Assembly (NCBI GenBank): GCA_048213135.1
Contig: PS015356.1
Coordinates: forward strand, 25,328-60,713
From: Reclinomonas americana ATCC 50394
Lineage: Eukaryota
Length of the DNA: 35,386 nt
Direction of reading: 5' to 3'
The number at the start of each line of letters is the position of its first letter. The stretch's first letter is position 1. Both the position numbers and the translations under genes were made by a program. The notes beneath the pieces are model-generated. The model did not search any database, had not been told where the DNA came from, and was given only the letters and a program-made list of their open reading frames with translations. Shown here one piece after another: positions 2,196 to 33,910 of this stretch.

Positions 2196-4595
2196 GGTGG
2201 CCAACCAGTTCTACATCAGTTCACTGCGCGTGGTGGAGTTCATATTAGCATTCTCAGCACTCGTGTGCTTCATCGTGCGTACACACACACACTCTCACTC
2301 CTCCCTCTACTCTCCCTCACACTCAAGCTGATCATTCCCTCTCCCTCATCCATGCATCATCATTCATTCGTTCAGATTTTGCTGCGCATTCAACACTACC
2401 GCTTCTTCCGCGGACGATCGCGCGTGCTCACCATGTTCATCTGCCTCCTCTTCCTCTGTTACAACACCTGGGGACTCTTCACGTACTACATCACCTCCGG
2501 ACCGTGCATCATACTCGGCGTGTCGGCCATGATCTTTTACCCGCTCATCACGTGGGCGCAGATCTTGCGGTGTGTCGTCTGTCTCTCTCCTCCTCAACTC
2601 CTCTTGCATCTCGTCCTTGACACACACACGCGCCGCATGCAGCACTGCGCGACTGCTGGTGGTGTTTCGTTTGAATCGAGTGCGCGCTGATCTGGCACTT
2701 TTGCGCGAGGTGCCGCCGGGTGCGGAAATGGGAACCACGAGCTCGGTCGGCGATGCGTTGAGCGGGGACGATGCACCGCTGTCGCCGTTGACGTCGCCGT
2801 CGGTGATTACGTCGTCGACGGCAGAGTCGGTGATGCAGCCGGTGCCGGCCGAGGTCAAGGCCACGGAGACACTGTCGTACTCCAAGTATGTGTCGGAGCC
2901 GTACATGCTCATGTATGTGCTGGCGCCGTTGCCGTTGCAGCTGGGACTCTTCATTTCGGGTGTGTGGTGGATGGCCCCCGGCAGTGACATTGGCCGCCTG
3001 GATCAGAACTGGTGTCGGTGTACCGACATTTTGCGGTCGCTGCAGATTGTTGAGTGCTCTCCCGTCACCGCCCTTTTACCCTCCCGTCTTTTTCTCATTT
3101 TTTTGGCCTGCACAGGCCGTGTCGGCATTCATCACCGCGCAAGTGGTGGTGCTCACTTCGCTGACGATTGCCGCTCGCAACGTGCGCGACGTGTGGTGGA
3201 TCAAGCTGGAGGCCGTGGCCATCACCATTGCGTGCATCACCTTGCTGATTCCGAGTCTCGGTATTGTGTTTGCCACCGGATCGTTTGCCTTTGCCGTTCG
3301 CACCTCCTCTGCCGTGCTCCTCTACTGTTGCGTGCGCGCGAGCTCCATCTTTTCCGTGCAGTCCACACGATTGACTCACACACTCTCTTCACGCAGTGTT
3401 CATCTCCTGTGTCTTTGTCATCTCTGTCGTGGTGCCTGTGGTGCTGGCCTACCGGCATCGTCAAAATGTGCGACAGTTCGCGTCGGGCTCGCTGGCCACG
3501 GCCTTCAATGCCAGTGCGCGCGACAGCATGGGCTGGGAGATGCAGACAAAGTTGCTGCCGGTAGAGTCGTTTGATCAAATCATGGGCGATCACCGGTCAC
3601 GCTCCCTCTTCCGCGAATAGTTGTGTTGTCTTCTTTCTCCTTTTGTCGTCCTCCGCGTTTGGCACATCTCTCATCGCCGCAAACACTGCAGTCTACTGCA
3701 GGAGCTGGCGGTGGAGAATCTGTGCTTTGTGGAGGAGATCGAGTTGCTGCGCAAGGAGATCAAGGGCGCGCACAGTCGCATGCTGCGCCGAACTCGACGA
3801 GGACAGCCGCCGCAAGCCATTGACTCACTTGAACCGATTCGCTCACACTGCGAGCGCATCTACCGCGATTTCATCTGCGCCGGCGGCTGCCAGGAACTGA
3901 ACATCTCGGCTCGTGTAGCTGCCGAACTGCACATCATCATGAACATGGCGGTCGACGAACGGCCGCCGCTGTGCGACGTGCTGACGGTGACGCTGAATCA
4001 GTCGCAGTCGGCCAACGAGGCCATGCTCCGCCGACCGACCGTCGTACACTCGCCGTCGGTGGCGAGCTCCGTATTTGTCTCGTCGCACACGCTGCTGACG
4101 CCGCCCCCGGACGACGTGTCGGCTACCGACAGCCCGCAGCAGGAGGGACCTGTCGGTGGCGCCTCGCCACCGCCCCCATCACCGCCAAGGTCGGGACACC
4201 GCCACCAACCTTCGCGCTCCTTTGGTGGCCTGGCGGTGGATGTCGTAAGTGGTGACCGGCCAGTGACGGGCGATGCCGGCGGCTCGGTTGCCTTTGTAGT
4301 AGTCACCATGTTTGATCGTGTGGTCGCCGAGGTCTTGTTGACACTAAGGTACGGGTGCCAGCGACGCAAAGCTCATTTTGTGTTTTCGGTCGATCACCCA
4401 TGCCTTTCCCACAGAGTCGACTCGTATCGGAGATTCATCCTCAGCCCTGGTACGCTTCTATTCTTGTTCTTGTTGTCGTCGCCACCGTCCATTCATTCCT
4501 CTCGCTGTTGTGGCAGACTTCCGGCGATACATTGCCGCCGAGCGTGAATACGTGGCAGCTGCATTACGGGGGCGCTTTGTGTTGCGTACTTTTGT
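2050..4595 (+). CDS. 7TM-RGS protein (seven-helix membrane domain fused to a regulator of G-protein signalling domain); multi-exon, 3' end runs into the gap
   Basis: Spliced frame gives seven hydrophobic segments, with RNVRDVWWIKLE before TM6 and VISVVVPVVLAY at the end of TM7. RGS motifs follow: FDQIMGDHRSRSLFREYLLQELAVENLCFVEEI, IYRDFICAGGCQELNIS, MFDRVVAEVLLTLRVDSYRRFILSPDF. Confidence 0.85.
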
Positions 4596-5579
4596 NNNNN
4601 NNNNNNNNNNNNNNNNNNNNNNNNNNNNNNNNNNNNNNNNNNNNNNNNNNNNNNNNNNNNNNNNNNNNNNNNNNNNNNNNNNNNNNNNNNNNNNNNNNNN
4701 NNNNNNNNNNNNNNNNNNNNNNNNNNNNNNNNNNNNNNNNNNNNNNNNNNNNNNNNNNNNNNNNNNNNNNNNNNNNNNNNNNNNNNNNNNNNNNNNNNNN
4801 NNNNNNNNNNNNNNNNNNNNNNNNNNNNNNNNNNNNNNNNNNNNNNNNNNNNNNNNNNNNNNNNNNNNNNNNNNNNNNNNNNNNNNNNNNNNNNNNNNNN
4901 NNNNNNNNNNNNNNNNNNNNNNNNNNNNNNNNNNNNNNNNNNNNNNNNNNNNNNNNNNNNNNNNNNNNNNNNNNNNNNNNNNNNNNNNNNNNNNNNNNNN
5001 NNNNNNNNNNNNNNNNNNNNNNNNNNNNNNNNNNNNNNNNNNNNNNNNNNNNNNNNNNNNNNNNNNNNNNNNNNNNNNNNNNNNNNNNNNNNNNNNNNNN
5101 NNNNNNNNNNNNNNNNNNNNNNNNNNNNNNNNNNNNNNNNNNNNNNNNNNNNNNNNNNNNNNNNNNNNNNNNNNNNNNNNNNNNNNNNNNNNNNNNNNNN
5201 NNNNNNNNNNNNNNNNNNNNNNNNNNNNNNNNNNNNNNNNNNNNNNNNNNNNNNNNNNNNNNNNNNNNNNNNNNNNNNNNNNNNNNNNNNNNNNNNNNNN
5301 NNNNNNNNNNNNNNNNNNNNNNNNNNNNNNNNNNNNNNNNNNNNNNNNNNNNNNNNNNNNNNNNNNNNNNNNNNNNNNNNNNNNNNNNNNNNNNNNNNNN
5401 NNNNNNNNNNNNNNNNNNNNNNNNNNNNNNNNNNNNNNNNNNGTACTACTTCTGCTGGTTGCTGCTGGACGAAGAAAAACTCACAAATCATCCTTTTTTT
5501 CGACTCGACAGATAAACAACAATTAGTGTATGTGCGTGTAATACAAGGTGAAAATAAACAAATATGTGACACTGTTTTG

Positions 5580-8500
5580 CTACCCGCGCAGAAACATGCC
5601 CTGTGCCGGCACCAGTAGATTATCCGAAATCTGTTGTGAACATAAAACATCAGCAAGGAGCGACGAGAATGATACACGAAGCAGCGCGCGTACCTGACCC
5701 ACTGTGCCTTGCAGCAACTGAATGGTTTTCGGTCCCGCCACGCCGTCGGCAAAGAGTCCGCAGGCAGCCTGGAAGACCTGGATGAGCGGCGCCAGCTCGT
5801 CCTCCATGTGCACCACCGCGCTCAGTTGCGTGCCGAATGCCATGGCCGGGTCGCGAACATGGTACATGGTGAAGGGGCGACCGAGGAGCTTGGCCAGACG
5901 CTCTTGCATCACCTCCGGGGACATGGAGGCGTGAATGCCTGAACGCACGGACAGCACCAATCAGTGATGCGCACAGAAACCACACTTTCCACGGCGGGGG
6001 ACGCACCGAGAGTGGAGAGCCACAAACGCAGTTGTTGGATGCGTCGTCGCAGTGCGCGGAATGTGTCGACATCCAGCCGCCCCACCAGCAGCTGCGAGTG
6101 TCGCGGGGTGCTCATCGACGCCATGGACGACGAGGCGGAGAGTGTGGGCGAGGTGAAAATGCCGCTCTGCAGGAGCGAGAATAAACACACACGAGGAACG
6201 AAGAATCGCGACAACTGCTGCAACAGTACCTCACGGTGACCAAGAAAGGAGCCATCACGGCGACCCAAGAATGACCCCGACTGCTGCAGCGCTGCAGAGG
6301 CTCGCGTCGCCATTGGTGACGTGGACATGAAGCTCTGAGAGAGCGACGACGCGAGACTGTCGGCGATCGAGTCTGCATCGGAGATTTCCGAGACACGAAA
6401 GCCGTTCGTCTGCATTCCCCCCATACATGGTTAGCAGCAGCCCGCGGCAGTTGCGATAGAAGGGCGGTCGACGCAACTCGATTGTAATCCTCCTGAAACT
6501 GGAACAGACCGCGTCGAGTCACTGCATCGAGAATGCCGTGCGCCCTCGGTGCCGCACAGCAGTACCTGCAATGTCACGAGTCAGGGTGGATCGGAGGCGA
6601 TAAAGAACAACCAGGACACGCACCCCAAGCGAAACAAGCTGCGCTGCACCACACGCACGACAGCGCGGCAGCGTACAATGCCCTCGTCGAGCAGTGCTGG
6701 ATCGACGGTTACATCAACGTCAGCGGCCGAGCTGCCAGCCGGCGGCATTGCTCGCGGAAACTGGTCAAAAAACACGGTCGCGGCCTGGCTGCCAGCGGCA
6801 GCCGACGAGGGCACAACTCCCAGCGCTCGCGTGGTCGACGATCCCAGTGCGTGCGACAGTGCTTCCACTGGATCCGTCAACACCAGCGGTCGCTGAGGCC
6901 TGTGCAGATTCAAATCCGCCGCCTCCATGTCTAGCTCCTCCACGGGAGAACCTTCCGATGTTTCTGTCCCCGGTTCCGCGCCTCTCGCGCCCCCAACAGG
7001 CATGGGTAATGCCCATTCCTGTGAGTCGTGCCGCTGAGCCGGCATGGGCATTCGGCGCGCCGGATGCCGAAACGACGACGAGAATGCGGTAATGGCATCC
7101 ATCGGTGCTCTGCAGCATATGAGACGAATGAGAGCCAGCATCGCAGCAAGTCTGGTCGTCGACACGCACCCTTGCTGCCGCGATCGCAGCAGTGTCTTGA
7201 TCGAGCCCACAAGGCTGTCGGGGAAATCCTCGCGCAGGCGCTGCAATGTGAAGGCACTGCTCGAGAAGAAACAGCGGTCGTGAGAGGGAAGAACACCGGT
7301 GGGCTCGACACGCCTGCTTCACGCAACTCGATGCACTTGCTGACTGGGAGCATGCTCGGTAGCGGCGAATCCGGCGGGTACATGGTCACCAGTGCCATGT
7401 ATGTGTTCACCAGGTTCTCGTAGGCGTCGAAATCTCCATTCGGAACCTCTATGAAGGGATGCGCCACGTCCCAGTTATCCTCGTGTGACATGAACTGATG
7501 GGAGAAGTGTCAGAGAGGAACATAAAGGATATGATTTAAACAACTCCGACGCACCTCTTGCAAATCGGTCACACAGAGCACACGGCCGAGAGACGTCACG
7601 AGTGGGGACGCTCCGATGGCATTCCTGGCGCTCAGGAGTGAGGGAAGGTCAAGCAAAACATCTGATAATCAGTGGGGAGAGACGCAACGCAAAGAACAAG
7701 CGCTCCATGGCCTCACGCTGCACGAGTGGCATGGTGCTCTTGCCGTTGAAGAGGACGACTGTGACACGATCTTGCTCATTGTCTGTGGCACGCGCGCTGA
7801 CAGTGAGACAGTGGTTGCAGCTCTGTCGCATCAATACCAAATACCTGTTTTGACCAACACCGTGTGCTGCAGGCGAGGTGCGTGCTGCAGCCACTTGGTG
7901 ACCACATACAACTTGAAGCCGGTGAGCACACATAACCGCTCGTAGATGTGGATCTCCCGCGACAAGGCAGCAAAGGCGACCATGCTGAGAAGGTTCAGAG
8001 TCAGACACACCCACATCTGAAACAAGTGCAGACAACGCGGCAGCTACTTCACCTGCGTCGCTCGGGAGAAATCAGTGGCATCCACTCACGCGACGTGCTG
8101 ACGCTGGTGATCTGGTCGTCGGTGATGGTCATGAGGTAGGAGACGGCGGCCTCCAGCGAGCTAAAGTGATACCTGTGCAGGACAAAATGAGTGAGGATCA
8201 TCATCACCGCACGCAGAACAAGACGGCACTGACAGCACGCACCCCATTTCGCCATTCAGGCATGCGGGGGCTGCGAACTGACGAACAAACTCCAACTGCG
8301 ACACCATTTGCGTCACATTGGCCTTCAGGACCACGTAGATCCACACCGGCAGAAAGTCGTCGGAGCAAATGGCACCTGTTGCATGCGCAGGTGGATGAGA
8401 AGCTGCGTGTGGAAAGCCACCTTCCCCTTCACACCACACACAAACACACACCAGCACCGAGTTCGCCTTGCTTCGTGAACACAGCCTGAGCGGCCGTCAG

Positions 8501-11005
8501 CACCACCTTGAGCTTGCGCGTTGGCGAGTGCGCAAAGTACAGGGCACGCAGGCAGGCAATGGCATCCGCATACGGAATGAGCTCGTTGCTCCAGTACTGC
8601 GAACCCATGTGCAACTCGGCTTGCGAACAATGTGCAAACTGAACTCACAAACACACGCAGAAATTGAGTCAATCGCTAACGCAGCGTAAGACGCTGCTGC
8701 TGACTTCCTCCAACCTTCTGGCACTGCTTGGCAAAAAACTCATCGTCCTGCTTGTTTTCGACCGCCTTCAGGCACAAGTGTGAGAGGCGTCGAAAGAGGA
8801 TCTCCTCTATCGTAAAGTTGACTTCGTCTTCCGACAGGTCTTCCATCTCGTCCGGGTACGTTTGGTGCAGGTACTGGTCAAGAGTGTGTCAGTCAACATG
8901 CACATGGGTGGTGGAAGGAGGAGGACAGAGGCGCTCAACATCAGCAAAATCCTCGATAAAGTACCGCGTCTGAGACACGCGCTTCTCCGTCACGTCCTTG
9001 GTGTCGAATGCCTGCACATTACCGCACACGTCAACGACACTGCGCACGTCACCAACTCGCCAACCGCCACCAAACCTCGCGAATGCAGTCCGACACGAAT
9101 CGCAGCAGTAAACTACACACAGCCATCAACAGTCATGACGCAAAGCTCGAAACCCGCGGCAACACAGTTGCATCTCACGCACCCGGTGGCTGGATTCTTC
9201 GGGTCATCCAACAGATCGCTGACAAAATTGGGTCCGCGCGGCTCTGCGACACTGCGTTAGCGAACCACACATTGTATTCCCACTCGAGAATTCGCGTATC
9301 ATCACACACCGTGTTCATCACCGCGCGACAGAAACGTACGAAAGTCACGGCCGAGACCGGTGAGGAATTCGGCCCTTCTCTGGTTGAGTTCCTCGCGAAT
9401 GGCGCGCAGCCGCTGGAAGCGAATGTATTCACGCTCCAGCTCGTGCAAAATGGCATTTAGCGATTCCTGCGCACGATACGGGGTTGAGGGGAGCTCTCGT
9501 CTCGCCTATCTCTCCTCTGGGGATCACGCACCACTCGCTGATCCTGTGTAATGTCGTTCTGCAGCAGTGCCATGAGCAGGTCCACCACCAATTCACGCAA
9601 CACGTCCTGCCTCCTCCGCAGCTGTGCAGCCAGCAAGTGCTGCATCATCACGACCATGAGTCCTCGCAACCACACGCGAGTGCCTGCACAAAAACGCACC
9701 GATTCTCCCGCGGCATCGCTCGGTGAATCCGCCGCCACTTGTCCGGTGGCGATCAGCAGACGCAACTGCGCGAGCCACACACATACACACACGCTGAGTC
9801 GCCAATCACGGGAGAGAGAGAGAGCCCTGACTACCACCCCCGCCGCAACTTCCGGCATGGCCGCCTGCTCCGCCTCGTCGCAGATGGCGAAAAAGTCCTC
9901 GGGCGACGAACGCACTTGCGCGAGACGCTCCTGCGCCAACTCGGCCCGCAAATTGGCCAACAGAATACGCTTGCCGAGCACCTGCGCACGCAGCACCGTG
10001 GCGCGCTGCTCCAGAAACTTCGGGTCAAACAGGTCGACCATTGTCTTGCCGCCGCTGCCACTCGGCGTGCCCTGCGCCGGCACCTGCAACAGTTTCGGCA
10101 GCTGTGTCGCCGTGATGGATCTGATACCACAGATGAGCATCGCTTCCACACACAGAGTGGGTCAAAGTCGGGAGAGAGGCGTACCCACGCAGTCGTCGCC
10201 GTGTTCGCTCCGGACTCACCGCCGACGCCAAGTACACCGACTTGCCGGCCTGCTGTCGTACTGTGCGTGCCGAGGGCTTGGTCGACAGCGGAGCCGACGA
10301 CTCGCCACTGCGCACATCGATACAGGCATGAGCGACAGGAGAGAGAAAGCAGGCGGAGGTAGTAGAAGAGGACCTTGCTTGCGTGGACCACGCCGAAGTC
10401 GCCGACTCAAACGAGGCCATGGGCGACGTCTGCGTCGACGAGGCCTCCAGCATCGACGGGATGCTCAGTGCATCCGAGCGCGGCACCACCGACTTGCGAT
10501 ACTGCGCCACTGTGAAACACACATATGATTGAGCACACTGAAAGAGAGAGACGCGACACACACAAACCATTTGCCGGTGGCACCACCGGCTCCGCCAGTC
10601 GCGCAGACCGTACCAGTCGACCTGCACAACCCCTCAATGAGCACGCACGTCTTTATCTCTCTCTCTCACACGCAAACACACTCACCTCCTGCCACCTCTC
10701 TCCTCTCACTCATCTCCGCCACTGCAAACACCGCTCCCGCAGCTGCTGTCGCCTGTTGTTGTTGTTGTTGCTGTTGTCGCGGCAGCTCATACACTTGATC
10801 CACTAAACCCTCCTCTTCCACTGCAATCGCCAGTGCGTCGCTCTCCAGTCGCGCAGCCTCAGTCAGCCGCTCAAGAGCCTCGCTCACCCACTCGCACACT
10901 ACATGCGACCTGCGTGTGCCATACATGGTGAGACACACACAGAGAGAGGCGCAAGCGGGTGAGAGAGACATACCGAGGCAACTGCAGCTCCACAGCGCCC
11001 TCCAT
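5580..11005 (-). CDS. VPS9-domain Rab5-family GEF with N-terminal coiled-coil/low-complexity region and C-terminal STB6-like / peptidoglycan-binding-like region; multi-exon
   Basis: First exon MEGAVELQLPR (ATG 11005; alternative in-frame ATG 11032). Helical bundle TIEEILFRRL..DDEFFAKQC, then VPS9 motifs AHSPTRKLKVV, GAICSDDFLPVWIYVVLKAN, GEMGYHFSSLEAAVSYL (about 8120-8600). Then LTGFKLYVVTKW, LGRVLCVTDLQEF, FIEVPNGDF, VQRSLFRLGY..GILDAVTRRGLFQFQ, IQVFQAACGLFADGVAGPKTIQLL; TAG at 5580-5582. Some internal exon boundaries are uncertain. Confidence 0.8.
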
Positions 11006-11038
11006 TGCGGTGTCCTGTGTGCCCCGTATCATGCGATA
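11006..11038. promoter_or_regulatory. Very short head-to-head interval (putative bidirectional promoter or overlapping 5' UTRs)
   Basis: Minus-strand ATG at 11005 and plus-strand ATG at 11039, each followed by a short exon and a phase-compatible GT-AG intron. Confidence 0.45.
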
Positions 11039-13963
11039 ATGAGCGCGCGAGGTGACCCGTCGTCCGCCTCTCTCTCTCCCTCCCTTGTGTGTGTGCGTGA
11101 CTCTCTCTCTCTCTCCACAGAGGCATCTCGATCGTCGCCTGCATCGCCCAAGAGCGGCGGTGGTGTCCCACCATTGCGACGACACACATCATCGCCGTCG
11201 TTGAATGCTGCTGTGCCGATTGTCGTCACTGCCTCTCCACCAACACCAACAGCAGCAGCAGCAGTGCAATCACCATCGCAGTTGCCTCCATGGGTGACTG
11301 CAGCAGCAGCAGCATCGTCGTCACCGATTCCACCGCGATTGGCGCCACTGTCGCCACGACGAGTGTCGATGCCGGTGCCGGTACCTCCTGCACTCGCTGC
11401 TGCCACTGCTGCTGGCAGTGGGGGTGTTGAGTCACCGCCATCACTGTCACCACCGCCGCCATCGTCGTCGTCGATGCAGACATCGATGCCGTCGGTGCCG
11501 TCGCCTGGAGGACCAGTGGTGACGAGCAACAGCGTCGCCAAGGTTAATGTGAATCTCGTTGTTTTGCTCTTCAGTGATGATAGCTTATGTAGCAAGTGTG
11601 TGTAATAGCGATTAGAGTTTGAGGCACCACCACAGCAGCGACGGCAATCGTCGGTGTCGCCGACGCGTGGGCGACCGAAAGCAATTGCGATGCCGCTGGA
11701 GGATAATACGGGAGTGGTGCCGACGCGGCATGGTATGGTATCGCCATTGTCGGAGAGTGCCTTGTCGTCGTCGTCGTATGGTTCGCCGCAGCAGAGGCCA
11801 CCGTTGTTGCAGCTGACGCCGCGAACGCGCATGCGGAGGAGTAGTGATGCGGATTCGGAGGCCTCGGACAACTCGGAGGGCTCTGAGCGCAGTAATGTTG
11901 CATGCATCCGTGGTGGTGTGTCGCGTGTGTGGTTCGCTGCTGATACAGCGCTGTGTGCAGTATGTGCCGATGTATGCGCGAGAGAGTCGGCGCAATCTCA
12001 AGCGCGGCGCCAGTCTCTTCAATGGGGCTCTGTCGCTGCCGAAAATCACCGTCGACGTGCGTCGCCGATTGCGTGCGTGTGAGTGTGTCTCTCGAAGACC
12101 ATGCATCCACTGAATCCGCGTGTAGGATGTCGCCGCGTCGACAGTGTCACCCGACGCCAAGGCCACCGCCAAGAGACGCAAGTGCCTGATTTCGATGCGG
12201 CTGGCCATGACGATTTTCGTGGTGCTCATCATGATTGTGCTTCTCGTGATCGCCGGTTCGTCTTCTACGCTCCCCGTGTCTCACACACTCGAGCGACGTG
12301 GGCTGACGAGGCCATGTGCCTGCAGTGGTTCTCATGTGGACTGTCGGTGTCTCGTCGGTCACCCAAGTGGGCACCGATCTCACCGAGCGCGTGCAGGGTG
12401 AGCTGGTCGACGCCATCACCACCAATGTTGGCATTCAGGTTCGTGATGCTTGCCACCGCCGCACTCTGCCTCCCAGCCACCCTCTCGCTGATGGAGTACT
12501 CGTAGCCGAGGGACCCGCTTATCATGGTGCGATATCTGGTGGAGCAAGGATCGGCGGGCGCCACACCGTCCTCGTTTGACGCCACCAGCAACGTTCTTTT
12601 CAATGTGGTGAGCACGTGGTCCATCGGCCCTCTTCTTCTGTGCGCACGGCAGGAATGCAGACACGTGTTCCTTTCTTGATTCAGGCACAAAACTGGAGCA
12701 ACTCGCTGCAGGCCGTGTGGGTCGCCGACACCAGCGGCAATGTCAATCTGATGCAGTTCGATCCCAATGTTTCGTGCACACATCGCCGAGCCCACCATGG
12801 CCTTCTTTGCCCCCCTTGCGGTATTGCTTAACAGCGCCACGTGCAGAATTCATCCACCGTGTGGCTCCTGCAGCGACGCGCGAACAGCGCAGTATTTGAT
12901 GGATTTGCACGCGACCTCTCCAGTTCACAGTCGACTCCGCTGACGGGAATCACACTCAGCAATCCGGTCGACTTGACCACTGTACTTCAGGTCTCCTTGA
13001 CTGACACGCCACCGCTTCGTCGTCTCACTGCACGCTGACGTGTCGCGCGCAGAGTGACACACTGAGAATACCACTCAGCGACGTGCAAGGAGTCGGCTTT
13101 GTTGGCGCACAGGGAGCCGTCGCTCCCGTGCCGGGTACCTCCACTCAGAGCGTGTTCAGTGTCGACGTGGGCACGTATTATCGACGCAGTCCAACCGTTG
13201 CGCACTGTGGGTGGTGTGGGCTTGCGTGGGCGTCTGCGTGGGCGACTCACCCTCCCAGACACAGGATGCGTCACTCAACGGCAACGGCGCCGGCACAGTG
13301 TCGGTGGCTCATGTGTTTACCAGCCTGCAATCGCAGCTTCGTGACCGCATCCTGTCTTCGGTCGCCGACGTCACGTTTTTCATGATGAGCGCCGCCGACG
13401 GCTCGCTCCTGATGCACTCGTCGGCCAATGTCGTCAACGTCGGCTATCCCTCGTCGGCCAACTCACCAATCACGGCGGCGCAGTGTGACGACTCTCGCAC
13501 TCGTTCCATTGACTCTTGGCTTCGCTCGGTGAGAGGAGCATCAACAATGAGTGACGCATTGTGTTCGTGGCTCATCCAGTGTGGTCGTCAACAGCGATAC
13601 GGCAATGACCTGTCCGGCTTCCAGTGCAACGGGAACAATGCATCGCATGACGTCCTCAACGGCCTTCTTCAGCTCTCTTGCCTCAGCTCTACCACGACCA
13701 CCACATGGCGCGGCTCATATCGCTGGGTGCGTCGTCGTGCGATGATAGCCCATTTCCTGCTGCGCTCTGCCAGACTTACCTGCACTCGTAGATGGTGGTC
13801 ACCTACATTCCCACATCCTTCCTGATCAGCCCCATCAACTCACGCCTGCTGCTGGTGGTCCTTGTCAGTGTTGGCCTCGTGCTCGTCGGTGCCCTCCTCA
13901 CCTTTATCATCATCTACCTCATGACGAGACCACTGACCCGGCTCGGCGACAAGATGCACACTG
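11039..13963 (+). CDS. Receptor-type class III adenylate cyclase, 5' half (Ser/Pro-rich N-terminus, TM1, extracellular Cache-like region, TM2, start of HAMP)
   Basis: MSAR, intron 11052-11120, EASRSSP...; TM1 MTIFVVLIMIVLLVIAVVLMW; extracellular exons; TM2 LLLVVLVSVGLVLVGALLTFIIIYL; HAMP helix 1 MTRPLTRLGDKMHT; donor G|gtgaga at 13964 just before the gap. Confidence 0.75.
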
Positions 13964-16335: not shown

Positions 16336-16656
16336 GTGTCGTCGATCATGATCTCCTCCTCGGCCACTGCATGCGCCGACTGTCGCCAGCCTGCAGAGCG
16401 CGCGCGAAAACATGTGAGCAATCCGCGCTTTCTTTCGATATCAATCGCCGACACGCAAAACACACATACCATAGTCCGGCTGCAAGTCTAATGGTGGCAG
16501 CTCCTCCGAGTGCTCATTGTCTGCACAACGCGTCATGTGAGTGAGAGTGAGTGGGCAGTGTGGAGAGAGTGAGAGCACGAAACTCGGTTCAAACTCCCCG
16601 ATTCCATCATGACCTTCGTCGTCTTCGGTGGCGACAAACGAGGACTGTCGTTGCAT
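16336..16656 (-). CDS. 5' exons of an unknown acidic protein, truncated by the gap
   Basis: ATG 16656 MQRQSSFVATEDDEGHDGIGEFEP, intron (A|gtttcg 16583), NEHSEELPPLDLQPDY, intron, GWRQSAHAVAEEEIMIDD, then gap. Phases are compatible. Confidence 0.5.
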
Positions 16657-20400: not shown

Positions 20401-23400
20401 GCATGTGGACCGCGAGCTGGCCGGCGTACCGAACAAGGAGTGGAACAAGCGCGAGCGTCTACCGGCCAACCTGTCGATGAAGGATTGGGATGTGGAGTCG
20501 GTGCCGAGTTCGTTGGCGCCAACTGTCACCATTGCTGGCGGCGATCGGCTGACGGCCATGAGCTACGGCGATCACGTACTCACCATCAGCACCAAGATCG
20601 AGGTCAAGTTTGCACGCATCTTCATTCCCCTGGAGCACGACCCGATGCGCATTCGTGTGGCGTGGGCGCGCTATCTCAACCTGATCTTCAACGACTTTTT
20701 CAAGCGCTCGTTGCTGCTGGAGCAAGAGTACAACATGTACAAGCGTGCTCTCGCCATCCGGCACACCTCGCGCACCGACTTTTTGGCCGGCACCTGCAAC
20801 CTGCGGCATTTCGTGTCGCTGCTTCGCCGGCGTCCGCCAAAGAACCAGGAGGCACGACGTCGCCTGTCGACCAATTTTGACGGCCTTCTCAGCAACAGCA
20901 TCCCCACCGTCGATCCGGTCACCTGCATGCCGTCGTTCTGCATCATGATTCCGAGTGGTGCGTGGGTTGTGCACTCTGTGATTTCAAACCTTCTGTTTTG
21001 ATTAACTGACTCACTTTTGTGCACGTGCAGGTGACGAGCCGTTCTTGTACACCATGGATCAACTGCTGGAGGTCACCACGAATCGCGCACCGATTTTGCT
21101 TCACATGATAGAGCGGTACCCGAATGACTGGAAGAACTTTGCCGATCGAGTGCTGTCGGACCCCACCTTTGCCGACGAGGATGGCGACGCCATTGACATT
21201 ATCTTTACGCGCGGCGCACAACGGTCCAACGTGCTCGAGCTGATGGAGCAAGGCGACTATCCACTTGTGTACCACTCGTTCCGCAGCTTCAGCGTGCCTC
21301 TTCAGCGCAAGATTCGCGAGTGGGCCTGCGGACGGTACGTGTGTGTAGATGATGATAATGCTGATGCTCGTCTGCGGCACTGACAATGACTCGCTTTGGT
21401 TCTTTCTCACTACAGTTTCCAACCACTGTTCCGGTGTCTGGAGGGCGTGGCCGGCCAGCGCGATGCCCTCATCTTCCTGCACCGGCTGCAGAACCCGCGA
21501 GACCCCATGAGCCGAGCCATCGAGGTCGTCGACCAGAAGCTGCAAGTGGTGTTTGGCTACCAGTCGTACGGCAAGGTACCTGGAGCCTCGCTGAGAATCG
21601 CCTTCTTCTCTCACTTGCTCACTCGTTGCCGATTACAGCTCAAGCAAGCTGCTGACGGCGATGCGTCTGAACGCGGAGGCCTCCTGAGCGACATTAACAC
21701 GACGCTGGCCAAACTACCGTTCATCGATCTGGTGACCGTGGAGGCCACCACGTTTGAGGGCCAGACCGTGTACGACTCGGTGTGTTACAAGTTTGATCAG
21801 CGACCCGACGGTACCGTGTTGCGTGTCGAAAAGGCTCGCGTGCGAGTTGCGTGCCATGAGAGAAGTGCAGTCGTGTCGAAGACCAGGTTCCACACACGCT
21901 CACTTTCCCCACCTTGTGCAGTTGCCCGGCAATCCGTTCTTGTGTAGCGGCAAGGCAGAGAATCAGCATCAGATGTTTGTGCACGTACGCACTGAAATCG
22001 TGCAGGCTGTAGACTGCAACCAGGACTCGTACTTTGAAGAAATGCTCAAGGTGATTGATCTCCGCACATGTCGTTCGTTCTCTTGATGCACTGACGCGGT
22101 TGATTTTGTGGCAGGCCCCCTGCGCGTTGCGTGAGTTTGCTTTGAATCCGGAGGTGCGAGTCGTCGGATTCTCGGAGACCGTAATCACCGAACGATGGAA
22201 CTTTGTCGGTCGGCTGGCGGCCTTGGCCGAGCGAGCGTTCAACACCACCGTGCAACGCGGTCTCGGTATCATTGGTCTTCGCGCCCACTACGGTCACCCC
22301 GACTTCATCGATGCACGATTCGCTCGCTCCTGTGGCGGTCTCTCAAACAATGCCTACGTCAGCGAGGACATTTTCCTCGGTCTCAACTTGTGGATTCACG
22401 GCTACGAGTCGACGCATGTCGACTATCTGCAGTACGGCAAGGCTCGTGACACGAGCATGCTCACCACGGCCAAATTCGAGTCGAAAGTGGCTGGCGGCTC
22501 TGCGCAGGCTGTTGCGTGGAGATTTCTTGATTTTGAGCACACACGAGCACATCCTCACGTGCTGTCCCATCACGCAGTGCATGTCGCGTGAGGTGCATCG
22601 CTTGTACCGATCGCGTTTGTTTGGTCCGCTGCAGCGGTACTGCTTGTATCACTCCAACATGGGCTTCTACTTGAACCACTACATTGTGCGCAACGTTGTC
22701 ATTTTCTGGGTCCTCACCCACATTTGCATCAACATGGCCAATCACGTTGCGTCTCGAGCGTACCGTACTCTTCTTCTCTTCACTGCACTCGCATCTCACC
22801 AATAACCTCCCCGCGACGCAGTGGATCGAGTCCAAGTTCTTTGTGGCCACCAGCAACGATCCCTGGTTCCTGGCTGTCGGCATGTTCCTTTCCCTGCCCG
22901 CCATTTTCACCATGTGGATTGATCGCGGTTTACTGGGCGGCACTTGGTATTTCATCAAATACGTCGTGCCCATGGCTGGCTATCAATTATTCCACGTCAG
23001 TACCAAGGCCTACGGGTGGGGCATCGGTATCTCCTCGGACGCCAAGTTGCGCCTTCAGAGGGGGGATGCACACGTTTTTTTATGTGGCAGGTGACGGCAC
23101 GGTAGTAGATGTTTGCAATCTCTCTCCCGCACGCATGCACATACAGAGCACTTTGTCTGTGTCTGTCACTCTCTTCTCTGTCCCCACCGGTGACGTGCTT
23201 CCAATCACACACGCTCCCTGTCCAGCTCTTTGTATCCGCCTAACTGGACCGGCATCACTGACGAACCTGCGTCTCCTGACACGGTGCGTCTGATGGATCA
23301 CGACAGATACATTCAGACGGGGCGTACGTTTGGTCTCGAGCACACGCGGTTCCGCGACATTTTGCTGCAATTCAACGACTCGCACTTCAAGTACTGCTTC

Positions 23401-26400
23401 AAGCTGCTCGTGCTGCTGCAAGTCAATGCCATTGCACTTGGTACGGGTGTTGCTGCTTCTACAAGCGTGCGTGACTGCCTGTGCCTGACCACGCACGCGC
23501 ACATGTCGCAGGCGACCAGAGCATCATGTGGAGCGGCTGGCTCATGCTGGGCGTGACGCTGATTGCCCTCAATTTCTTCAATCCCAGCACGCTTCCGATC
23601 CGCACACCGGCCAAGTTCACCACGGTGCGTTATTGTTGCATGTGTGTATGCGATTTGAGTGTGTCTCGCTCACTGCTCACTGAATTGTGTGCTTCACAGA
23701 AATTCATGCAGNNNNNNNNNNNNNNNNNNNNCAAGACATGATGGACTTGCGCGATCACTCCAAATTCTGGCTCGACCGACGAGGCAACAAACTGACCAAG
23801 AATCGACGACGCTGCTGCTCTCCATGGTTTGTCCGTGGCGAGAGGAGAGCCAGGGAAGAGAGAGAATCACGTACTCATGTGGTGTGATGCCGATGCAGGT
23901 TGCCATACACCATCTTCTGGTTCTTGTGGCAGAATCGCATGGCGGCCATTGTCATTGGCTGGTTGACACTGATGATTGTGCGATTGACGGCATTTGTTGT
24001 TGAGTTGTACAACAAGGTCATCAACATTGGCATGACGCAAGGTCTGTTATTTTTTTCGTTCTCGCCGTGCGCAACGAGCTATCGGACTGCTTCTCATCGA
24101 CACGCTTACACGCAGCTGTGGACTACGAAATCCCGTCGGGCTTCCGTCGCATGCCACGCGCCTACTACGAGACCATTAATCAGGTCATTGACGATAAGCT
24201 GATGCAACTCAATCTGCACGCCAACGACATTGGCATGTCGGTTCCACGCGCTCACTTCCCCGGCGACGACCCGACTCCTGTGGACGCCTTCTTGCCCAAT
24301 CGATCGCTGGCTGCCTCGTCACTGCGCCGAAGAGTGGCCTCTGGCGGTTCGCTCAAGCACGCCAGTGAAGTCGGCGGCGCCGGCTCCAACGTGTCTCTGC
24401 TGCGACCGGTGGCGGCATTTGAGGATCTGGCTCGGCGATCGCGTCTCGGCAAGGGCGTGGTGTCGCCCGGCTCGCTGCATCAGCAGCAACAACAGCAGGC
24501 GGCACAATTCTCTGATCTCGACAGTCGAACTACCACTGTACACTTGCACCCGAGTGCGGCAAGCAATGCTGGCGTGCTCGGTGCCTATCTGGCTCGTGTG
24601 CAGCAGTCGCTCGGCAATCGAGAAGACGTAGTGGAGGACCCACACATGCGCTTGTTGCAGTCGGATAACCTGCGTAGCGAGCAAGTTGCGTTGTACACTG
24701 GATTGTGATGGAAGAGAAAATCGCCGAGTCTCACACGTGTGTGTGTGTGTGTGTGTTNNNNNNNNNNNNNNNNNNNNTGTGTGTTGTGAACAGAATCACA
24801 TTGAGAAGGCGGTGACAGAGAACGAGGGACTGGTGATGGAGTTGGTGAAGGACATTAATGATGCTTTCAACGGCTTCTGGTTCTTCAATCCAGAGGAGCG
24901 ACCAGAGGCCACCTCGGCGGTGGTGCGTTGTGGCGCGATCTTACATTCTCTGCTTGGGTGAGTTTTGGAGGACTTATTATTGTTGGCTGCAGACGGCGCG
25001 CATCTGGGACATTGAGGACGACGAGGCCGACGATGATGAGGTGATGGCATACGACGATTACGTGCAGCTGGCGGTGAATGTCACCAAGAAAATCAAGGTG
25101 TGCGGCGGTCGCAGTTTTTGTGGAGTTGATTATTCTTCTGAATACGCAGACACATACACGCAGAAATACCAATACCGCTTGCGCTCGTCGCACGTGTCGT
25201 TCCCAGCACTCGTGCGCCGCATCCTCAACATCGAGTGGCCACAAGAACGACTCGACTTTTTGCTCATGTTTGGCAGCTTTGGTGGTGCCGTCAGCAAGGC
25301 CATTGACCAGTGCAACGACGACACTCTGTCTGGCCAGGAGCGTCGCCATCGTGCTGTCTTGCGCGTGGTCTGGGCCCTCAACACGTACGTCGAAAACACG
25401 TACGACCTCATGCGACGGACTGTACTGTCGCTGCACATGCGCGAGTTCCGCGCGAATCCGCTGTGCGTGGACCTGGTACAGGCGGCGTTCTTGAGCATTC
25501 AAGAAGGTCTCTTTGGTTTCCATCGCCACGACTGTTGATAGGCAGACTACTCACTGCCTGTGATATCTCACTTGCGCAGGCTACCAAATTCTGCTCGGTG
25601 AAGGCGTGCGACAATTTGCGGAAGAGGTGGCGCCGCAGTTCGCAGCTGCGGCCGTACTCGCCAACGACATGGCGTCGATGGATCCAGACACGATGCTGGC
25701 GCGCGCACAAGAGATCAAGTCGTTGTGGAAGACGGTGCAGAAACTGTCGGCTCACCTCGCCGTCACCTCGCAAGAAGTACTGCAGCTGTCGCGAGCGTTC
25801 GAGGTATCCCATTGCACCGTTATTTATTTTGTTGCCTGCACCCACCGACTCACTTGTTTATCGACGCTCGCAGGAGGGTGAGGCGCCGCACTACTTTTTC
25901 GATTCGCGCATGTTGCAGATGAACGGTGTACTGGACGACAGCCCAGCCATTCAAAGCAAGTTGGAACTGGTGACGAGCACACTCATGCAACTGCAGCAGA
26001 TGGAAGCGCGACTGGAGAAGGATTGCATTCGATTGGTGCGCATGAAGCAAGGTCTCAACCCCGACGACGACAGTACGATCATGCCTCTCGATCTGCCGAC
26101 CATGGCCGAGAGCGTGCACTCAGTGTCCAGCTACCGCGGCGGTCTCGGCAGCTCAATTGCTGGCACCCCGCACGCTGCCCTGGAGATGGTCGCCACTCCG
26201 CGCACCGTGATTGAGGAGGCCGGCAAGCAGATGAAGATCACTGTCGTTGGTGCGTACCCACGTCACTCTTTTCTCCTCCGTGCCCGTGGCTCACTCTCTT
26301 CTTTTGTGAATGTGTGCGTGTGCAGCACCACCACCACTGGCTCCATCGAGCGCCGCCGGATCGTCGACGTACAACGAGGACGAGATGCGCAAGGCTTCGA

Positions 26401-29454: not shown

Positions 29455-29455
<1 letters not shown>

Positions 29456-29500
<45 letters not shown>
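29456..29500. repeat. (CT)n microsatellite, intronic
   Basis: Perfect CT run upstream of the acceptor at 29543. Confidence 0.95.
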
Positions 29501-29503
<3 letters not shown>

Positions 29504-29543
29504 TGATGGAAGAAGCTCATGAGTGTGCATTTGGCCGTTACAG

Positions 29544-32500
29544 TCACTGTGACCGAGGCTTCGTTGTTTCTGGTGGCGCAGAGTGACAGCTGCCCGTCTG
29601 TGCCAGAGCAGCAGCAAGTGTCGCTGACGGGCACTGCTCTGCCGCTTACCTCGGCCGATCCGGCGGGCCTTGCGCTCTTTATCGACACTGCCTGCACTGT
29701 CGCCTTTCCTCGTGTCGTCATGACATCGTCGATTACCGCTGCCACCGCCGCCAGCCTCACCTTTGACACCACCAACATGAACAGCGCTCTGGCCACGAGG
29801 TTGCGCTTGCACTGATCTCTCCTTCTTTCTCCCTCTGGCTCTCTCTGCTCACGGTATGTGTCATGCAGTGGCTTCCTGTGCGGTCGTGCAACTCCGACGA
29901 CCGCCTACAGCAACCTCGTGTCTGTGTTTTTCAGCGCGCCGTGCATTCGCACCCCGCGCGCCATTCGCTACGCCCTCGATTGCGCAGGAGCGACTCAGGG
30001 TGCTAGCGCGGCGACCACGATCCCGGCGACGCAGTCTGTGCCGATCACGGGCAGCAATCTGGCTGCCTCCCTCATTTTCGGCTTGGCTGCGTCGAATGAT
30101 TGCCAGGGCACTGTTGATACCACCACTGTGCCACTGGCTTACACGGCATCGGGCTCCACCCTCGACTATACCACTCAGACGGCAACTGCCAGCACCGTGA
30201 CGTCCCAGTACTTGTGTGCGCGCAAGGTTGCCACTGGCACGTGGGCGTACACTGGCGCACAGATTACGGTGAAGCAGTTGTGTGTGGTGCCTCGCATCCA
30301 GGCCGCCGGCGACAAGAGCATTATGTTGCACCCGGGCTCGTGCACCACAATTACTCAGTCGCAAGTCGTCCCCAATCTGTACATTACCGGATTCGCCGCG
30401 ACTGCCGCTTTTACGCCGTCGTCGTCGTCGGATCAGCTGGTGCTATCCAACGACCCGGCCGGCAATTGCCAGCCCCAGTTCCACGTCAGCACTGTGACGG
30501 CCATCTTTGTGTCGGACACGAGCATTGCGGTGCGCTTTTCCTGTCGATCGCCGGCACTACTCCACACGCGTACTCACTCCTCGCATGCAGTTTGACACCA
30601 CAAAGCAACTGACGCCGATCTCTGCTCCACTCACTCTGTGCACGCGCGCTGTCTTTGAGGACAACTGGGTACCGACGGCGGCCACGATCACCATCAACAA
30701 TGGCTGCTGGTCGGTGGCGTCGCTGTCGATCCCACCGGGCGCCTGCAACATCGACTCCCTGGGCAACGTCGGCAACCTCGATCGCACCATTACTGGCGTC
30801 AACATGCCGAGTTGCGTACCACGCGCTTACCCTTTTGTGAAATGACTCTGCGCACTCACTCTTTGGCCTGCAGCTGCTGCCGGCTTCGTGATTGACATTT
30901 TCGCCCCGGGCACATGCACTCCTGGAGGAGCCGGTGGCGATACTGTCCCGGTAGCAGAGTCTACACAGATGAATCAGGGGCTGTTGATTTCTCCCGACGG
31001 ATTGACGGCAACCAGCCAGGTGGTCAGCTTCATGACACTCACGCACATCCTGCGCCAGGCTGAAACCGTGGGAACACTGCCATACTATGAGATCTGCTAC
31101 TCCACCGATGCCGGCAACCAAGTCTATGTTCGTACCATCGAAGAGAATGCCTGCCTGTGCATGTTCTTACGTTGTTCGTGTGCCTCCCACAGTACTTCTC
31201 CGGCACGACTCTGACGATTGACGGACCGTGTGTGTCGTCGCCGTCACAACCATTCACCTTTGCCATCAACGATGGTGTCGTACAGAACCTGCACGTGGGA
31301 GGCACTGTCGTACCCGCACAGGCGACGCGCTACTCGTCTGGCTGGGATATGAATGACACGGCAATCATCACTTACGATTCCTTGTGCGACCCGACCACTG
31401 TTGCGCTTTGCGTTCATCATCTCCGTATAGTGCAAAAAAAGTTAACAAGTAACTCACTCTCGAGGGACAATCGTCTACACAGACTATTATCGACTCCGTC
31501 GCTGGAACGACGTTCACCTTCGCTACTACCTTCTATGACACGGCGATCGCGACCGTGGACTCGGCGCTGTTGGCGGCACTGCCGGCCGGCCGCAAGCCAA
31601 CTGATTTGAGCCTGTGCATCAATCTCAATGGTGCCGGCACCTCGTACGTGCGCCTGGCGACCATCAATTTCGGTGCGTGGAAGAAGCACATCAGGTGCTT
31701 CATTAGCTGAAGCCTGCATGCTAACTGAAATCTGTGCATGTCTTTCACAGTGTCCATGTCGGTCGTGCGAGACACGTACGCCACTGGCATCTTCAACGCG
31801 CAGCTGCAGCTTGATGGGTTCCCCCTGCCCGCTCCATCCACATTCGACACGGCATCCGCGGCGGCCACGACCGGAAACCCGATCGTGTTTATCACGGACA
31901 CGGCCACCACATGCATCGATGGCGTGGTGCCAACTGGCGCAGCAGCATTGGGAGCAGGCATCACCAACCTGTCGCTGACGATGCTGACCGGAGCGACCGG
32001 GTTTTCGACCACGGCCGAGCACTACGCATTCCAGCTGTCGACCCGTTCGGCGCTGGCGGCGTGTGCGACCACCAATTTTGTGGCTGCGGGCGACTACCTG
32101 CTGTGCGTGCGTCTGGGCGACGGACAGGGTTACATGACGGCAGCCACGTTGCATGTCACTGGTACGCCTCGATAATCAGTTCCCTTTTTGCGTGCACGCG
32201 CACACAGACCTACCTGCTAACCAACATGTTTTGCGCAGCCGACACTACGGCAGTTTCCCCGGGCACATCGATTTCGGCCGCCTTCAACAAGCGCTTCAAT
32301 TTGACGTTGTCGGGCACCTTTAACGACTGCTCTACCTTCTCGATTGTCAACTACGATCCGTCAGTGGTCAGCTGCGGTGCGTCGCTTACCGACACCGTGA
32401 CTGGACGGCTGTCGTTCTCGCTCGACGTGACCCTCGGCCTCGGACGCTACAATGCTGCGTCTGGACTGTACTCGTCGTACACTCTTTCGCTGCAACCCAA

Positions 32501-33910
32501 CTCGACCGTGCGCCGTCCGCTCATGGTTCGTGTTGCTCACTTACTTGCGTTTTTATCGTGTTACATCTTGTGCACTCACCTCTGCCCTTCGCTTGTTGCC
32601 TTGGCGCAGCTGTGCTTCCAAGCCAACTCGAATGGTGCTTTCCTGGCGATTCCGTCCGCGTTCCCCAACACCGGTACCGGCGTGATCAACATTGGCGCAC
32701 GTGAGTGCCAGAGTGCGCTTTCTTTACCTTGACCGTGGTAGATGTCTCATGCGGTACTGCGTGGGTGACACAGACATTCAAGCCGGCACAATTGTGGGTG
32801 ACAACAGCGATGCGTTGTACGCCGCTTCCCAATTCGACGGTGGTGCTGGCACACGCACGTGGCAGATTACCACGCAGTTTACGGAGGAATTTAGTTTCGT
32901 GGCGGAGCGCCTCCTTTTTCGTCTCCAGTGCCTTGCGCTGTGCTGACCCACTCTTGTCTCGCCACAGCTTCGGTGCCGAAGGTGTTCTTCGCGTTGCAGG
33001 GCCTTAACATTGGTGCCAGCGACACTCGTTTCTACTGCTCCACCAAGTTGCGTGTTGTTGCGTGCTTTCTGCTTGCGACACACCAGCGTCCTCATTCCTT
33101 CCTTGTCTTGGTGCGTGCAGTCGTGTGACCACGCAGCAACTGCTGCTCCGCTGCATCACGTACACCAACGTCGACATCAACAAGTTCGTGTGTGTGTGTG
33201 TATTATTGCGTCATCGCTGCAACATTTGATACTGAAAAGAGTTACTCTCTCCTATTGTTTCGTGCAGCCTGTCGCTTGGATGGATGGCGGTCAACATGCC
33301 GAGCACTTCGTCGAACGACTTGCGCGTCGGCAGCATCAACTACGTCGCCGATCGCCACCGCTCGTGGTGGACGCCGACGACAACCTCGTCCACGCGCGCA
33401 CAGTCGTCCTCGATTACCATTGGCAACTATGTGCAGTTCCCGGCGGTGCTCACTGCGCTGCGCCATGGCTACATTAGCGGATCGTACGACGCGGACTTTG
33501 TCGGCGGCGACGTGGAGGCATCGATTACCAAGTTCAACTTCCGCCACCAGGCGTCGGTGCAGACCACGTGCCGTGTGTCACGCCTTGCATTCTCGTACTT
33601 GTCGTACGTGCCGCGTGGTGCGAGTGGATGGGGTCTCCTGGCTGGCGAAGGCAGCCTCACGGCGCCTTTCGCTGACGCCGTTCACGACATTTCCACGGAC
33701 GATTTGACGGCTGACAACACCACGTTTGTGGCCTACCTGCGTGGATGGGCGTTTGCTTCGGCGGGCACAGATGGATCGCTGGCGGTGCAGTTGTCAGTGG
33801 GTGGATCGTTCCCTTCATTCACCGTATCCGTCAGCACGACTGGATCGGCGTCCACCCCGTCACGCATCGATTACTCCTGGGCCGCGCTTGGCATGGCTGC
33901 AACTGTGTAA
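29544..33910 (+). CDS. Large Thr/Ala/Cys-rich, probably extracellular protein with C-terminal H-type lectin-like domains; multi-exon, 5' end in the gap
   Basis: Spliced frame of beta-strand-like modules with recurring Cys (GFLCGR, QYLCARK, LTLCTRA, YEICYS, LSLCIN, YLLCVR, LCFQ). Then TQFTEEFTSVPKVFFALQGLNIG..RFYCSTNRVTTQQLLLRCITYTNVDINNLSLGWMA (H-type lectin pattern) and two weaker similar units; TAA at 33908-33910. Confidence 0.7.

Follow-up and report, generated by a model that had tools for sequence, protein, structure and literature searches.

In a 35,386-base window of the Reclinomonas americana ATCC 50394 genome (contig PS015356.1), the form of the 5' splice site (donor) depends on the last base of the exon. 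After an exon ending in G (position -1), introns typically start GTGCG, with a conserved G at the fifth intron position (+5G); after A, C or T (together, H), many start GTTGCG, with the downstream motif one base later and its G at +6. We defined the normal class as G at +5, and the shifted class as T at +3 and G at +6 with no +5G, and assigned junctions from the genomic sequence by reading frame, homology and splice signals. In a curated set of 93 introns, +5G donors followed G in 47 cases and H in 9, and shifted donors followed G once and H 25 times (Fisher test, p=1.5e-12); donors of neither class were equally divided (five after G, five after H), and one intron had a GC start. An earlier sequence-only reading of the window had proposed that donor class depends on the last exon base and that the shifted class is a major one; both proposals held, with 26 of the 93 introns shifted. 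We lean towards the view that one reader recognizes a fixed heptamer in two registers, and that the register moves by one base wherever the last exon base is A, C or T.

The predicted association of +5G versus +6G with the -1 base, tested within the window, was significant in every parse that we tabulated. Parses came from a dynamic-programming gene finder with window-trained codon usage, a crude branch-point and acceptor score and a broad length prior. The motif-blind parse (v2), with GT...AG as its sole donor rule, gave 88 introns in sense-strand regions: 26 +5G donors after G and 12 after H, 1 shifted donor after G and 18 after H, and 13 and 18, respectively, of neither class (+5G versus shifted, Fisher p=4.0e-6). 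Two later parses applied a two-class model to intron positions +3 to +9 and never scored the exon base. Counting donors after G and after H, v3 (94 introns) gave 38 and 23 with +5G against 1 and 25 shifted, and v5 (97 introns) gave 43 and 12 against 1 and 26 (Fisher p=3.5e-11). The curated set was derived from v5 by replacing its glucan synthase part with a hand-curated list, removing donors 4318, 4466, 25831, 27279, 27463, 29455 and 14766(-), and adding 4349, 4450, 25804, 27315 and 23827. Restriction to the 63 introns that came from v2 or were checked by homology or Pfam left 28 and 5 against 1 and 20 (p=3e-9); the 14 homology- or Pfam-checked donors alone gave 4 and 1 against 0 and 6 (p=0.015), the other three being of neither class and all after G. 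Two other parses were discarded, a first naive one as too inaccurate and one with a harsh intron penalty that read through in-frame introns.

Phase gave a test independent of the GT chosen by a parse. Donor strings lying 45-150 nucleotides (nt) upstream of v2 acceptors were counted, and the share in frame-preserving phase was compared with one-third. H|GTT[GT]CG strings were in phase in 18 of 24 cases (p=3.6e-5) and G|GT[GTA]CG in 28 of 30 (p=9e-12), H|GT[GA]CG stood at chance (10/31), and G|GTT[GT]CG was in phase in one of two cases, indicating that GTGCG is functional solely when G precedes it, and GTTGCG when A, C or T does. As for usage, v5 took as donors 18/30 of the G|GTGCG strings on the sense strand and 4/62 of the H|GTGCG strings, 18/29 of the H|GTTGCG strings and 1/3 of the G|GTTGCG strings; H|GTTGCG occurred only seven times on the antisense strand.

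Homology placed individual donors. The hand-curated model of a 1,3-beta-glucan synthase gene, which has 20 introns up to an N gap, translates to 1506 residues with no stop. Aligned to four homologues, it was gap-free at 11 junctions, namely shifted donors 18091, 18927, 21846, 22511 and 23046, normal donors 19380, 20083, 20958 and 21335, and donors 21576 and 22051, both of neither class; in tblastn the match carried on to the exact residue at 22510/22578 and 23045/23307. In a nucleotidyl cyclase gene, PF00211 profile positions continue across shifted donor 15478 (about 126 to 126-127), and are likewise contiguous across A|GTGAGT at 15762 (-), an exception to the rule. In a gene for a CAP-Gly protein, the match extends beyond a donor mis-chosen by v5 and supports 27315. 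Assuming GT-AG ends, six shifted donors (18091, 18927, 21846, 22511, 23046 and 15478) are fixed to the codon, with predicted cleavage before GTT. The pattern might still be an artefact of donors chosen by their motif or of mis-set intron boundaries: the sequence-only reading was made without tools, the later parses scored intron donor positions, most introns have alternative in-phase GTs, and the junctions rest on genomic sequence. We consider this extremely improbable, given that the -1 base was used in no parse and the GT-only parse still gave p=4e-6, that in the phase test H|GTGCG stood at chance but H|GTTGCG did not, and that homology fixes the six shifted donors just named.

Tabulated by position, the normal class after G (n=47) and the shifted class after H (n=25) proved to be one motif offset by a base, bearing out the suggestion that the two align as G[G/T]TNCG. 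Positions +4 to +8 of the shifted class mirror +3 to +7 of the normal class, a comparison with the lineage's own consensus and not with a known U1 small nuclear RNA (snRNA). Normal +3 (G28 A9 T9 C1) corresponds to shifted +4 (G20 T5), +4 (C29 T11 A6 G1) to +5 (C22 A2 T1), +6 (T32 C8 G5 A2) to +7 (T18 C5 G2) and +7 (G21 C14 T7 A5) to +8 (G12 C7 A4 T2). The shifted consensus was the stricter, with C in 22/25 (+5) against 29/47 (+4; p=0.03); T stood at +3 in 41/93 curated donors. The -1 base before the 26 shifted donors was A12 T7 C6 G1. G was depleted relative both to exon composition (G 0.297; p=0.0012) and to the base preceding unused exonic GTs (G 0.227; p=0.011), and A was enriched (p=0.0013 and p=0.0003, respectively).

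The dependence on the -1 base could instead arise after U1, if loss of the exon-end G weakened the contact with U5 loop 1 and extra or altered U6 pairing with +5 to +8 offset that loss. In human sites, U6 pairs at +5 to +8 are reported to compensate for a missing -1G, and U1 alone does not explain the link between -1G and +5G (PMC8283771). Here, however, five consecutive shifted-class positions copy the normal class one base later, which looks like one reader in another register and not like added contacts; we hold a post-U1 origin to be very unlikely.

In the model that we favour, one reader, most likely the 5' end of U1, would recognize the fixed heptamer G-[G/U]-U-G-C-G-U. It would straddle the junction, in the usual register, at exons ending in G (G|GUGCGU), and would lie wholly within the intron at exons ending in A, C or U (H|GUUGCGU). 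At shifted sites the intron +1 G would replace the exon-end G, the obligatory +2 U would be a tolerated mismatch, and everything downstream would move by one base. Cleavage would be set by the only GU within the heptamer, through later spliceosome components rather than the U1 register, and in the shifted class would thus fall one base upstream of the place that the register predicts. An A-rich, G-poor -1 position is what one would predict with -1 opposite U10 of U1 and the +1 G opposite C9. We infer that the reader is U1, that its register is shifted and not bulged, and that the U1 of this lineage would have a base pairing with the conserved C.

Duplexes were modelled with ViennaRNA nearest-neighbour energies for the canonical U1 end, printed as AUACUUACCUG (PMC4856993), and for a hypothetical end complementary to GGUGCGU. 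The hypothetical end gave means of -10.3 kcal/mol for the normal class and -6.5 for the shifted class. In its minimum-energy duplexes, which describe this hypothetical end and not the real snRNA, the +1 G lay on C9 in 14/25 shifted donors, position 8 was unpaired in 19/25, and -1 lay on U10 in 10/25.

A bulged U would produce an identical downstream alignment: U1 would pair with the +1 G and +2 U as usual, the +2 or +3 U would bulge, and pairing would resume at GCGU. One-nucleotide bulges at +2/+3 have been validated in human sites (PMC4856993), and our model chose a bulge for the single G|GTTGCGC site, although it preferred the shifted register for sites after A, C or T. A bulge would keep the exon-end G paired with C9, and G should then be favoured at -1 as it is in the normal class (47/56); its scarcity (1/26), with A enriched, fits a shift better, and we regard a bulge as unlikely. 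Two U1 paralogues, one complementary to GGUGCGU and the other, with one base changed where it faces the second position of the heptamer, fully complementary to GUUGCGU, would suit both the tighter consensus at the conserved C of the shifted class, as from a dedicated reader, and the equal efficiency with which the two classes are used (18/29 shifted, 18/30 normal). A second U1 alone, however, would leave the avoidance of G before GUUGCG unexplained, and such a pair seems to us quite unlikely.

Several results weigh against a single U1-like reader in two registers. In no register does the canonical U1 end pair more than weakly with the shifted class (mean -1.3 kcal/mol, against -6.4 for the normal class); if U1 is the reader, its bases opposite the conserved GC must therefore be non-canonical, and the model calls for an as yet unobserved change in U1. 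Of the shifted or bulged U1 register suggested by the sequence-only reading, the shifted one best fits the position tables, the -1 composition and the nearest-neighbour model, but it sits poorly with the canonical U1 end. The model also rates the single G|GUUGCG site at -9.4 kcal/mol, better than the H-class mean of -6.5, and pairing strength therefore does not explain the scarcity of G|GTTGCG (1/26). The normal class shows no preference for A at -2 (11/47) despite the same U10 contact being on offer, and H|GTGCG is seldom a donor although the model pairs it over six contiguous bases (-7.1); taken with the scarce G|GTTGCG, these observations suggest that a G in the first position of the heptamer counts for more than contiguity. 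One window with about eight genes supplied the whole sample, and a single gene contributes 9 of the 26 shifted donors. Frame seldom fixes a donor: for just 2/27 v5 shifted donors is there no second in-phase GT at 45-150 nt from the acceptor, and because most acceptors have others we rejected frame alone as proof of a donor; 4/27 could be read through. The hand edits dropped three +5G donors after non-G (4318, 21339 and 27463), which favours the association, and one shifted donor (18624); the unedited parses were significant as well.

The conserved C (+4 in the normal class, +5 in the shifted class) stands where canonical U1 has a pseudouridine. This C and the poor pairing of canonical U1 together predict a changed U1 and/or U6, as once suggested for Ostreococcus, and such an snRNA could be searched for directly; that the lineage has variant U1/U6 snRNAs, as the sequence-only reading supposed, is speculation. 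A larger proposal is possible but doubtful, namely that U1 position and cleavage are routinely uncoupled in this lineage. About a quarter of all introns would then be one base out of register, the choice would be set by the last base of the exon, and the 5' end of U1 would have been reshaped to read GCGU, possibly in the form of two paralogues differing at one base.

In other respects the introns of both classes are of the ordinary U2 type (GT-AG): they measure 58-100 nt, carry a CTSAC branch motif and end in a CAG acceptor. All but one of the 93 curated introns are GT...AG, the exception being a low-confidence GC start at 15231 (-). Median length was 68 nt in the normal class and 71 nt in the shifted class, CTNAY occurred within the last 50 nt in 37/47 and 22/25 introns, respectively, with the branch A at a median of 17-18 nt from the intron 3' end, and the acceptor was CAG in 44/47 and 24/25. 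U12-type donors carry a long conserved ATATCC/GTATCC motif; the only U12-like donor among the 93 was G|GTATCCC at 25804, and none was in the GTTGCG class. An all-against-all blastn-short comparison of the 93 introns gave no hits at E<=1e-3, so the introns are not copies of a repeated, introner-like element. In v5, 79/97 introns cannot be read through. The remaining 18/97 have a length that is a multiple of three and no in-frame stop (for example, 19876-19935, 20083-20148, 15478-15413 and 9849-9766), and their retention would keep the frame.

Coordinates are collected in Table 1; the curated set holds 28 more G|GTNNG donors. Among 39 donor strings listed by the sequence-only reading, 38 were correct in coordinate and strand, but 29780 was wrong, the G|GTTGCGC site being at 29800. 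That these donors belong to introns was largely upheld (36/39 within the curated set; 29780, 24685 and 32701 outside it). With 29780 taken as 29800, the motif-blind parse recovered 24/39, and a parse scoring +3 to +7 only recovered 33/39. Five shifted donors were additional to that list, at 7327, 9849 and 7073 (-) and at 13197 and 18454 (+). Exceptions exist, as it had allowed, and the rule is a strong tendency and not absolute, with 9/56 curated +5G donors after A, C or T. Donor 32701 is an in-phase alternative to 32713, and either choice gives a +5G donor after non-G; the two tandem pairs (32700-32719 and 33183-33196) could be alternative 5' splice sites, adding or removing four or two codons. 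At 24685 (+), A|GTTGCGT is followed 21 nt on by an in-frame stop (24706) and by an N gap at 24758, so its acceptor cannot be checked; it could be the donor of a last intron with its acceptor inside the gap, or a chance motif at the real gene end. A lower-confidence donor, C|GTCGCGT at 8094 (-), has a shifted-class look with C for T at +3.

Table 1 Donors and genes in the window. M, in the motif-blind parse; C, in the curated set. Span is the donor string or the gene.
Feature	Donor	Span	Intron	Strand	Basis and remarks
Shifted	T|GTTGAGT	3048..3055	3049-3115	+	M, C
Shifted	T|GTTGCGT	3326..3333	3327-3396	+	M, C
Shifted	A|GTTGTGT	3619..3626	3620-3691	+	C; missed by motif-blind parse
Shifted	A|GTTGCGT	6471..6478	6477-6410	-	M, C
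Shifted	C|GTTTCGG	7067..7074	7073-6900	-	M, C; 174 nt, in frame, read-through possible
Shifted	A|GTTGCGT	7321..7328	7327-7257	-	M, C
Shifted	C|GTTGCGT	7682..7689	7688-7625	-	M, C
Shifted	T|GTTGAGC	8933..8940	8939-8874	-	M, C
Shifted	A|GTTGCGG	9843..9850	9849-9766	-	M, C
Shifted	T|GTTTCGT	12768..12775	12769-12873	+	C; alternative acceptor 12846
Shifted	C|GTTGCGC	13196..13203	13197-13264	+	M, C
Shifted	A|GTTTCGT	15472..15479	15478-15413	-	C; nucleotidyl cyclase gene, PF00211 continuity
Shifted	A|GTTTCGT	16577..16584	16583-16521	-	C; low-scoring segment
Shifted	A|GTTGCGT	17701..17708	17702-17778	+	M, C; glucan synthase
Shifted	C|GTTGCGT	18090..18097	18091-18158	+	M, C; gap-free against homologues P0001, P0151
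Shifted	C|GTTGCGT	18453..18460	18454-18699	+	C; acceptor uncertain (18516, 18636 or 18699, all in frame)
Shifted	T|GTTGCGC	18926..18933	18927-18994	+	C; gap-free homology
Shifted	A|GTTGCGT	21845..21852	21846-21921	+	C; gap-free homology
Shifted	T|GTTGCGT	22510..22517	22511-22577	+	M, C; gap-free homology
Shifted	C|GTTGCGT	22745..22752	22746-22821	+	M, C
Shifted	A|GTTGCGC	23045..23052	23046-23306	+	M, C; gap-free homology; 261 nt
Shifted	A|GTTGCGT	30810..30817	30811-30873	+	M, C; only in-phase GT for acceptor
Shifted	T|GTTGCGC	31399..31406	31400-31482	+	M, C
Shifted	A|GTTTCGT	32893..32900	32894-32967	+	C
Shifted	A|GTTGCGT	33046..33053	33047-33120	+	M, C
Shifted after G (sole exception)	G|GTTGCGC	29799..29806	29800-29868	+	M, C
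Near-variant, no +6 G	A|GTTGCCT	10976..10983	10982-10910	-	M, C; lower confidence
Near-variant, no +6 G	T|GTTGCAT	11896..11903	11897-11960	+	M, C; gene 5' end, uncertain
Normal	G|GTGCGTA	19379..19386	19380-19437	+	C; gap-free homology
Normal	G|GTGCGGC	20082..20089	20083-20148	+	M, C; homology
Normal	G|GTGCGGA	20233..20240	20234-20294	+	C
Normal	G|GTGCGTG	20957..20964	20958-21030	+	M, C; homology
Normal	G|GTACGTG	21334..21341	21335-21415	+	C; homology
Normal	G|GTGCGTT	23624..23631	23625-23699	+	M, C
Normal	G|GTGCGTT	24922..24929	24923-24992	+	M, C
Normal	G|GTGCGTA	26249..26256	26250-26325	+	C
Normal	G|GTGCGCT	30529..30536	30530-30590	+	M, C
Normal	G|GTGCGTG	31672..31679	31673-31750	+	M, C
Normal	G|GTTCGTC	12255..12262	12256-12325	+	M, C
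Normal	G|GTTCGTG	12438..12445	12439-12505	+	M, C
Normal	G|GTTCGCC	14701..14708	14707-14644	-	C
Normal	G|GTGCGTG	6617..6624	6623-6566	-	C
Normal	G|GTGCGTC	7548..7555	7554-7495	-	M, C
Normal	G|GTGCGTG	8236..8243	8242-8173	-	M, C; or acceptor 8161
Normal	G|GTGCGTG	7163..7170	7169-7110	-	M, C
Normal	G|GTGCGTG	9176..9183	9182-9040	-	M, C
Normal	G|GTGCGTG	9525..9532	9531-9467	-	M, C
Normal	G|GTTCGTG	32525..32532	32526-32609	+	M, C
Exception (+5G after non-G)	C|GTGCGTA	2274..2281	2275-2375	+	C
Exception	A|GTGAGTC	15756..15763	15762-15691	-	M, C; PF00211 contiguous
Exception	T|GTTCGTA	31127..31134	31128-31192	+	M, C
Exception, tandem in-phase donors 12 nt apart	C|GTGAGTG (32701), A|GTGCGCT (32713)	32700..32719	acceptor 32773	+	M, C; 32701 outside the curated set
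Exception, tandem in-phase donors 6 nt apart	A|GTTCGTG (33184), T|GTGTGTG (33190)	33183..33196	acceptor 33267	+	M, C
Exception	C|GTGCGTG	12072..12079	12073-12144	+	low confidence; or C|GTGCGTC at 12057
Exception	T|GTTGGCG	16101..16108	16107-16018	-	M, C
1,3-beta-glucan synthase gene		17452-24705	at least 22	+	homologues found carry PF02364
Nucleotidyl cyclase gene		~14.5-16.3 kilobases		-	Pfam PF00211
CAP-Gly protein gene		24.8-28.9 kilobases		+	Pfam match

The window is eukaryotic and gene-dense, with many short introns per gene and about 57% G+C in its gene parts. Besides the three genes in Table 1, several others had no family match in Pfam. One glucan synthase exon matched PF02364 below threshold (E 0.005, 15.5 bits, cut-off 37.2). 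The nearest glucan synthase homologues, 52-55% identical in the catalytic core, carry the EukProt label Cyanophora paradoxa, and the next-ranking ones are amoebozoan or unnamed. A search of protein collections with homologue P0001 turned up no window protein, a 132-residue glucan synthase exon used as query for longer homologues found none at E<=0.001, and a protein atlas gave only generic GT2 clusters for glucan synthase. Twenty metagenome loci were at most 45% identical, had no excess of the donor strings and are not relatives. Rfam, at gathering thresholds over the whole window, gave no matches. An RGS domain expected in exon 3693-4346 was not found by Pfam at E<=0.1, so introns 4349-4414 and 4450-4516 are called from intron-like signals alone. 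A multi-intron 'gene' at 24778-29101 (-), antisense to the CAP-Gly gene, scored 24-29 against 191-214 for the sense strand and was omitted as an artefact, since GC-rich coding DNA has long open frames on its antisense strand. Nine N runs interrupt the window; several are exactly 20 long (16316, 23712 and 24758), and these look like scaffold gaps. Intergenic or 5' regions hold long (GA)n, (CT)n/(CA)n and (GT)n dinucleotide repeats, at 1-35, 2160-2195, 29460-29500 and 24735-24790.

Textbook models of the 5' splice site, like most gene finders, allow for a single register, in which G stands at +5. Should a quarter of the donors in this lineage be shifted, gene prediction would need a two-register donor model conditioned on the -1 base; in this window several donors were mis-set by automatic parses until the two-class model was applied. 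If the reading is true, the lineage would offer thousands of natural test cases for cleavage-site fixing independent of U1, and a genome-wide natural system for the study of register choice, the U1-to-U6 hand-over and cleavage-site fidelity.

That 47 of 56 +5G donors follow G is an ordinary proportion. Exon-end G and +5G are linked in 5' splice sites generally (PMC8283771), and a likeness to such compensation is seen here in donors of neither class, where G stands at -1 in 5/10, including all three checked by homology or Pfam. The shifted class differs from it in that the whole motif has moved by one base, in place of a stronger match at the same positions. A parallel to the normal class is found in Mamiellophyceae, which have AG|GTGCGT donors with CTGAC branch points and whose snRNAs, Irimia and Roy suggested, may have changed to match GTGCGT donors (PMC2483917, PMC3879977). 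The unusual normal-class consensus GTGCGT(G) seen here is the same as theirs, and the strong branch motif is of the same kind. Unlike this window, however, the main-text passages of those two papers mention no GTTGCG class, their donor logos being supplementary; the best homologues of the window's glucan synthase come from outside the green algae, and the window has far more introns per gene than Ostreococcus. Literature searches by motif string and register terms, and not by organism, brought up no GTTGCG class or lineage-wide shifted register in the titles and abstract openings of the matches listed.

The registers described in human sites come closest to the shifted class. The human +2/+3 bulges of one nucleotide (Roca et al. 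2012, as cited in PMC4856993) resemble it in having one more U after GU, with pairing that is normal beyond that point; they keep the benefit of an exon-end G, unlike the class described here, which G precedes in 1 of 26 cases. In the human shifted (+1) register between U1 and the 5' splice site (Roca and Krainer 2009, as cited in PMC4856993), the helix moves by one position and cleavage stays at GU. There, as proposed here, the +1 G replaces the exon-end G, and there, as here, the consensus starts one base late, the human sites beginning GUU or GUC; in this window, by contrast, such introns number 26 of 93, follow a rule set by the last base of the exon and have the consensus GCGU instead of AAGU. 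Shifted and bulged registers are thus known as a rare human mode, and what is apparently new, in this one window, is a shifted class as a major mode that depends on the -1 base. Validated noncanonical registers together account for about 1.5% of 201,541 human sites (PMC4856993); if the pattern is true lineage-wide here, a mode that covers about 1.5% or fewer of human sites can become a main mode of 5' splice-site recognition.

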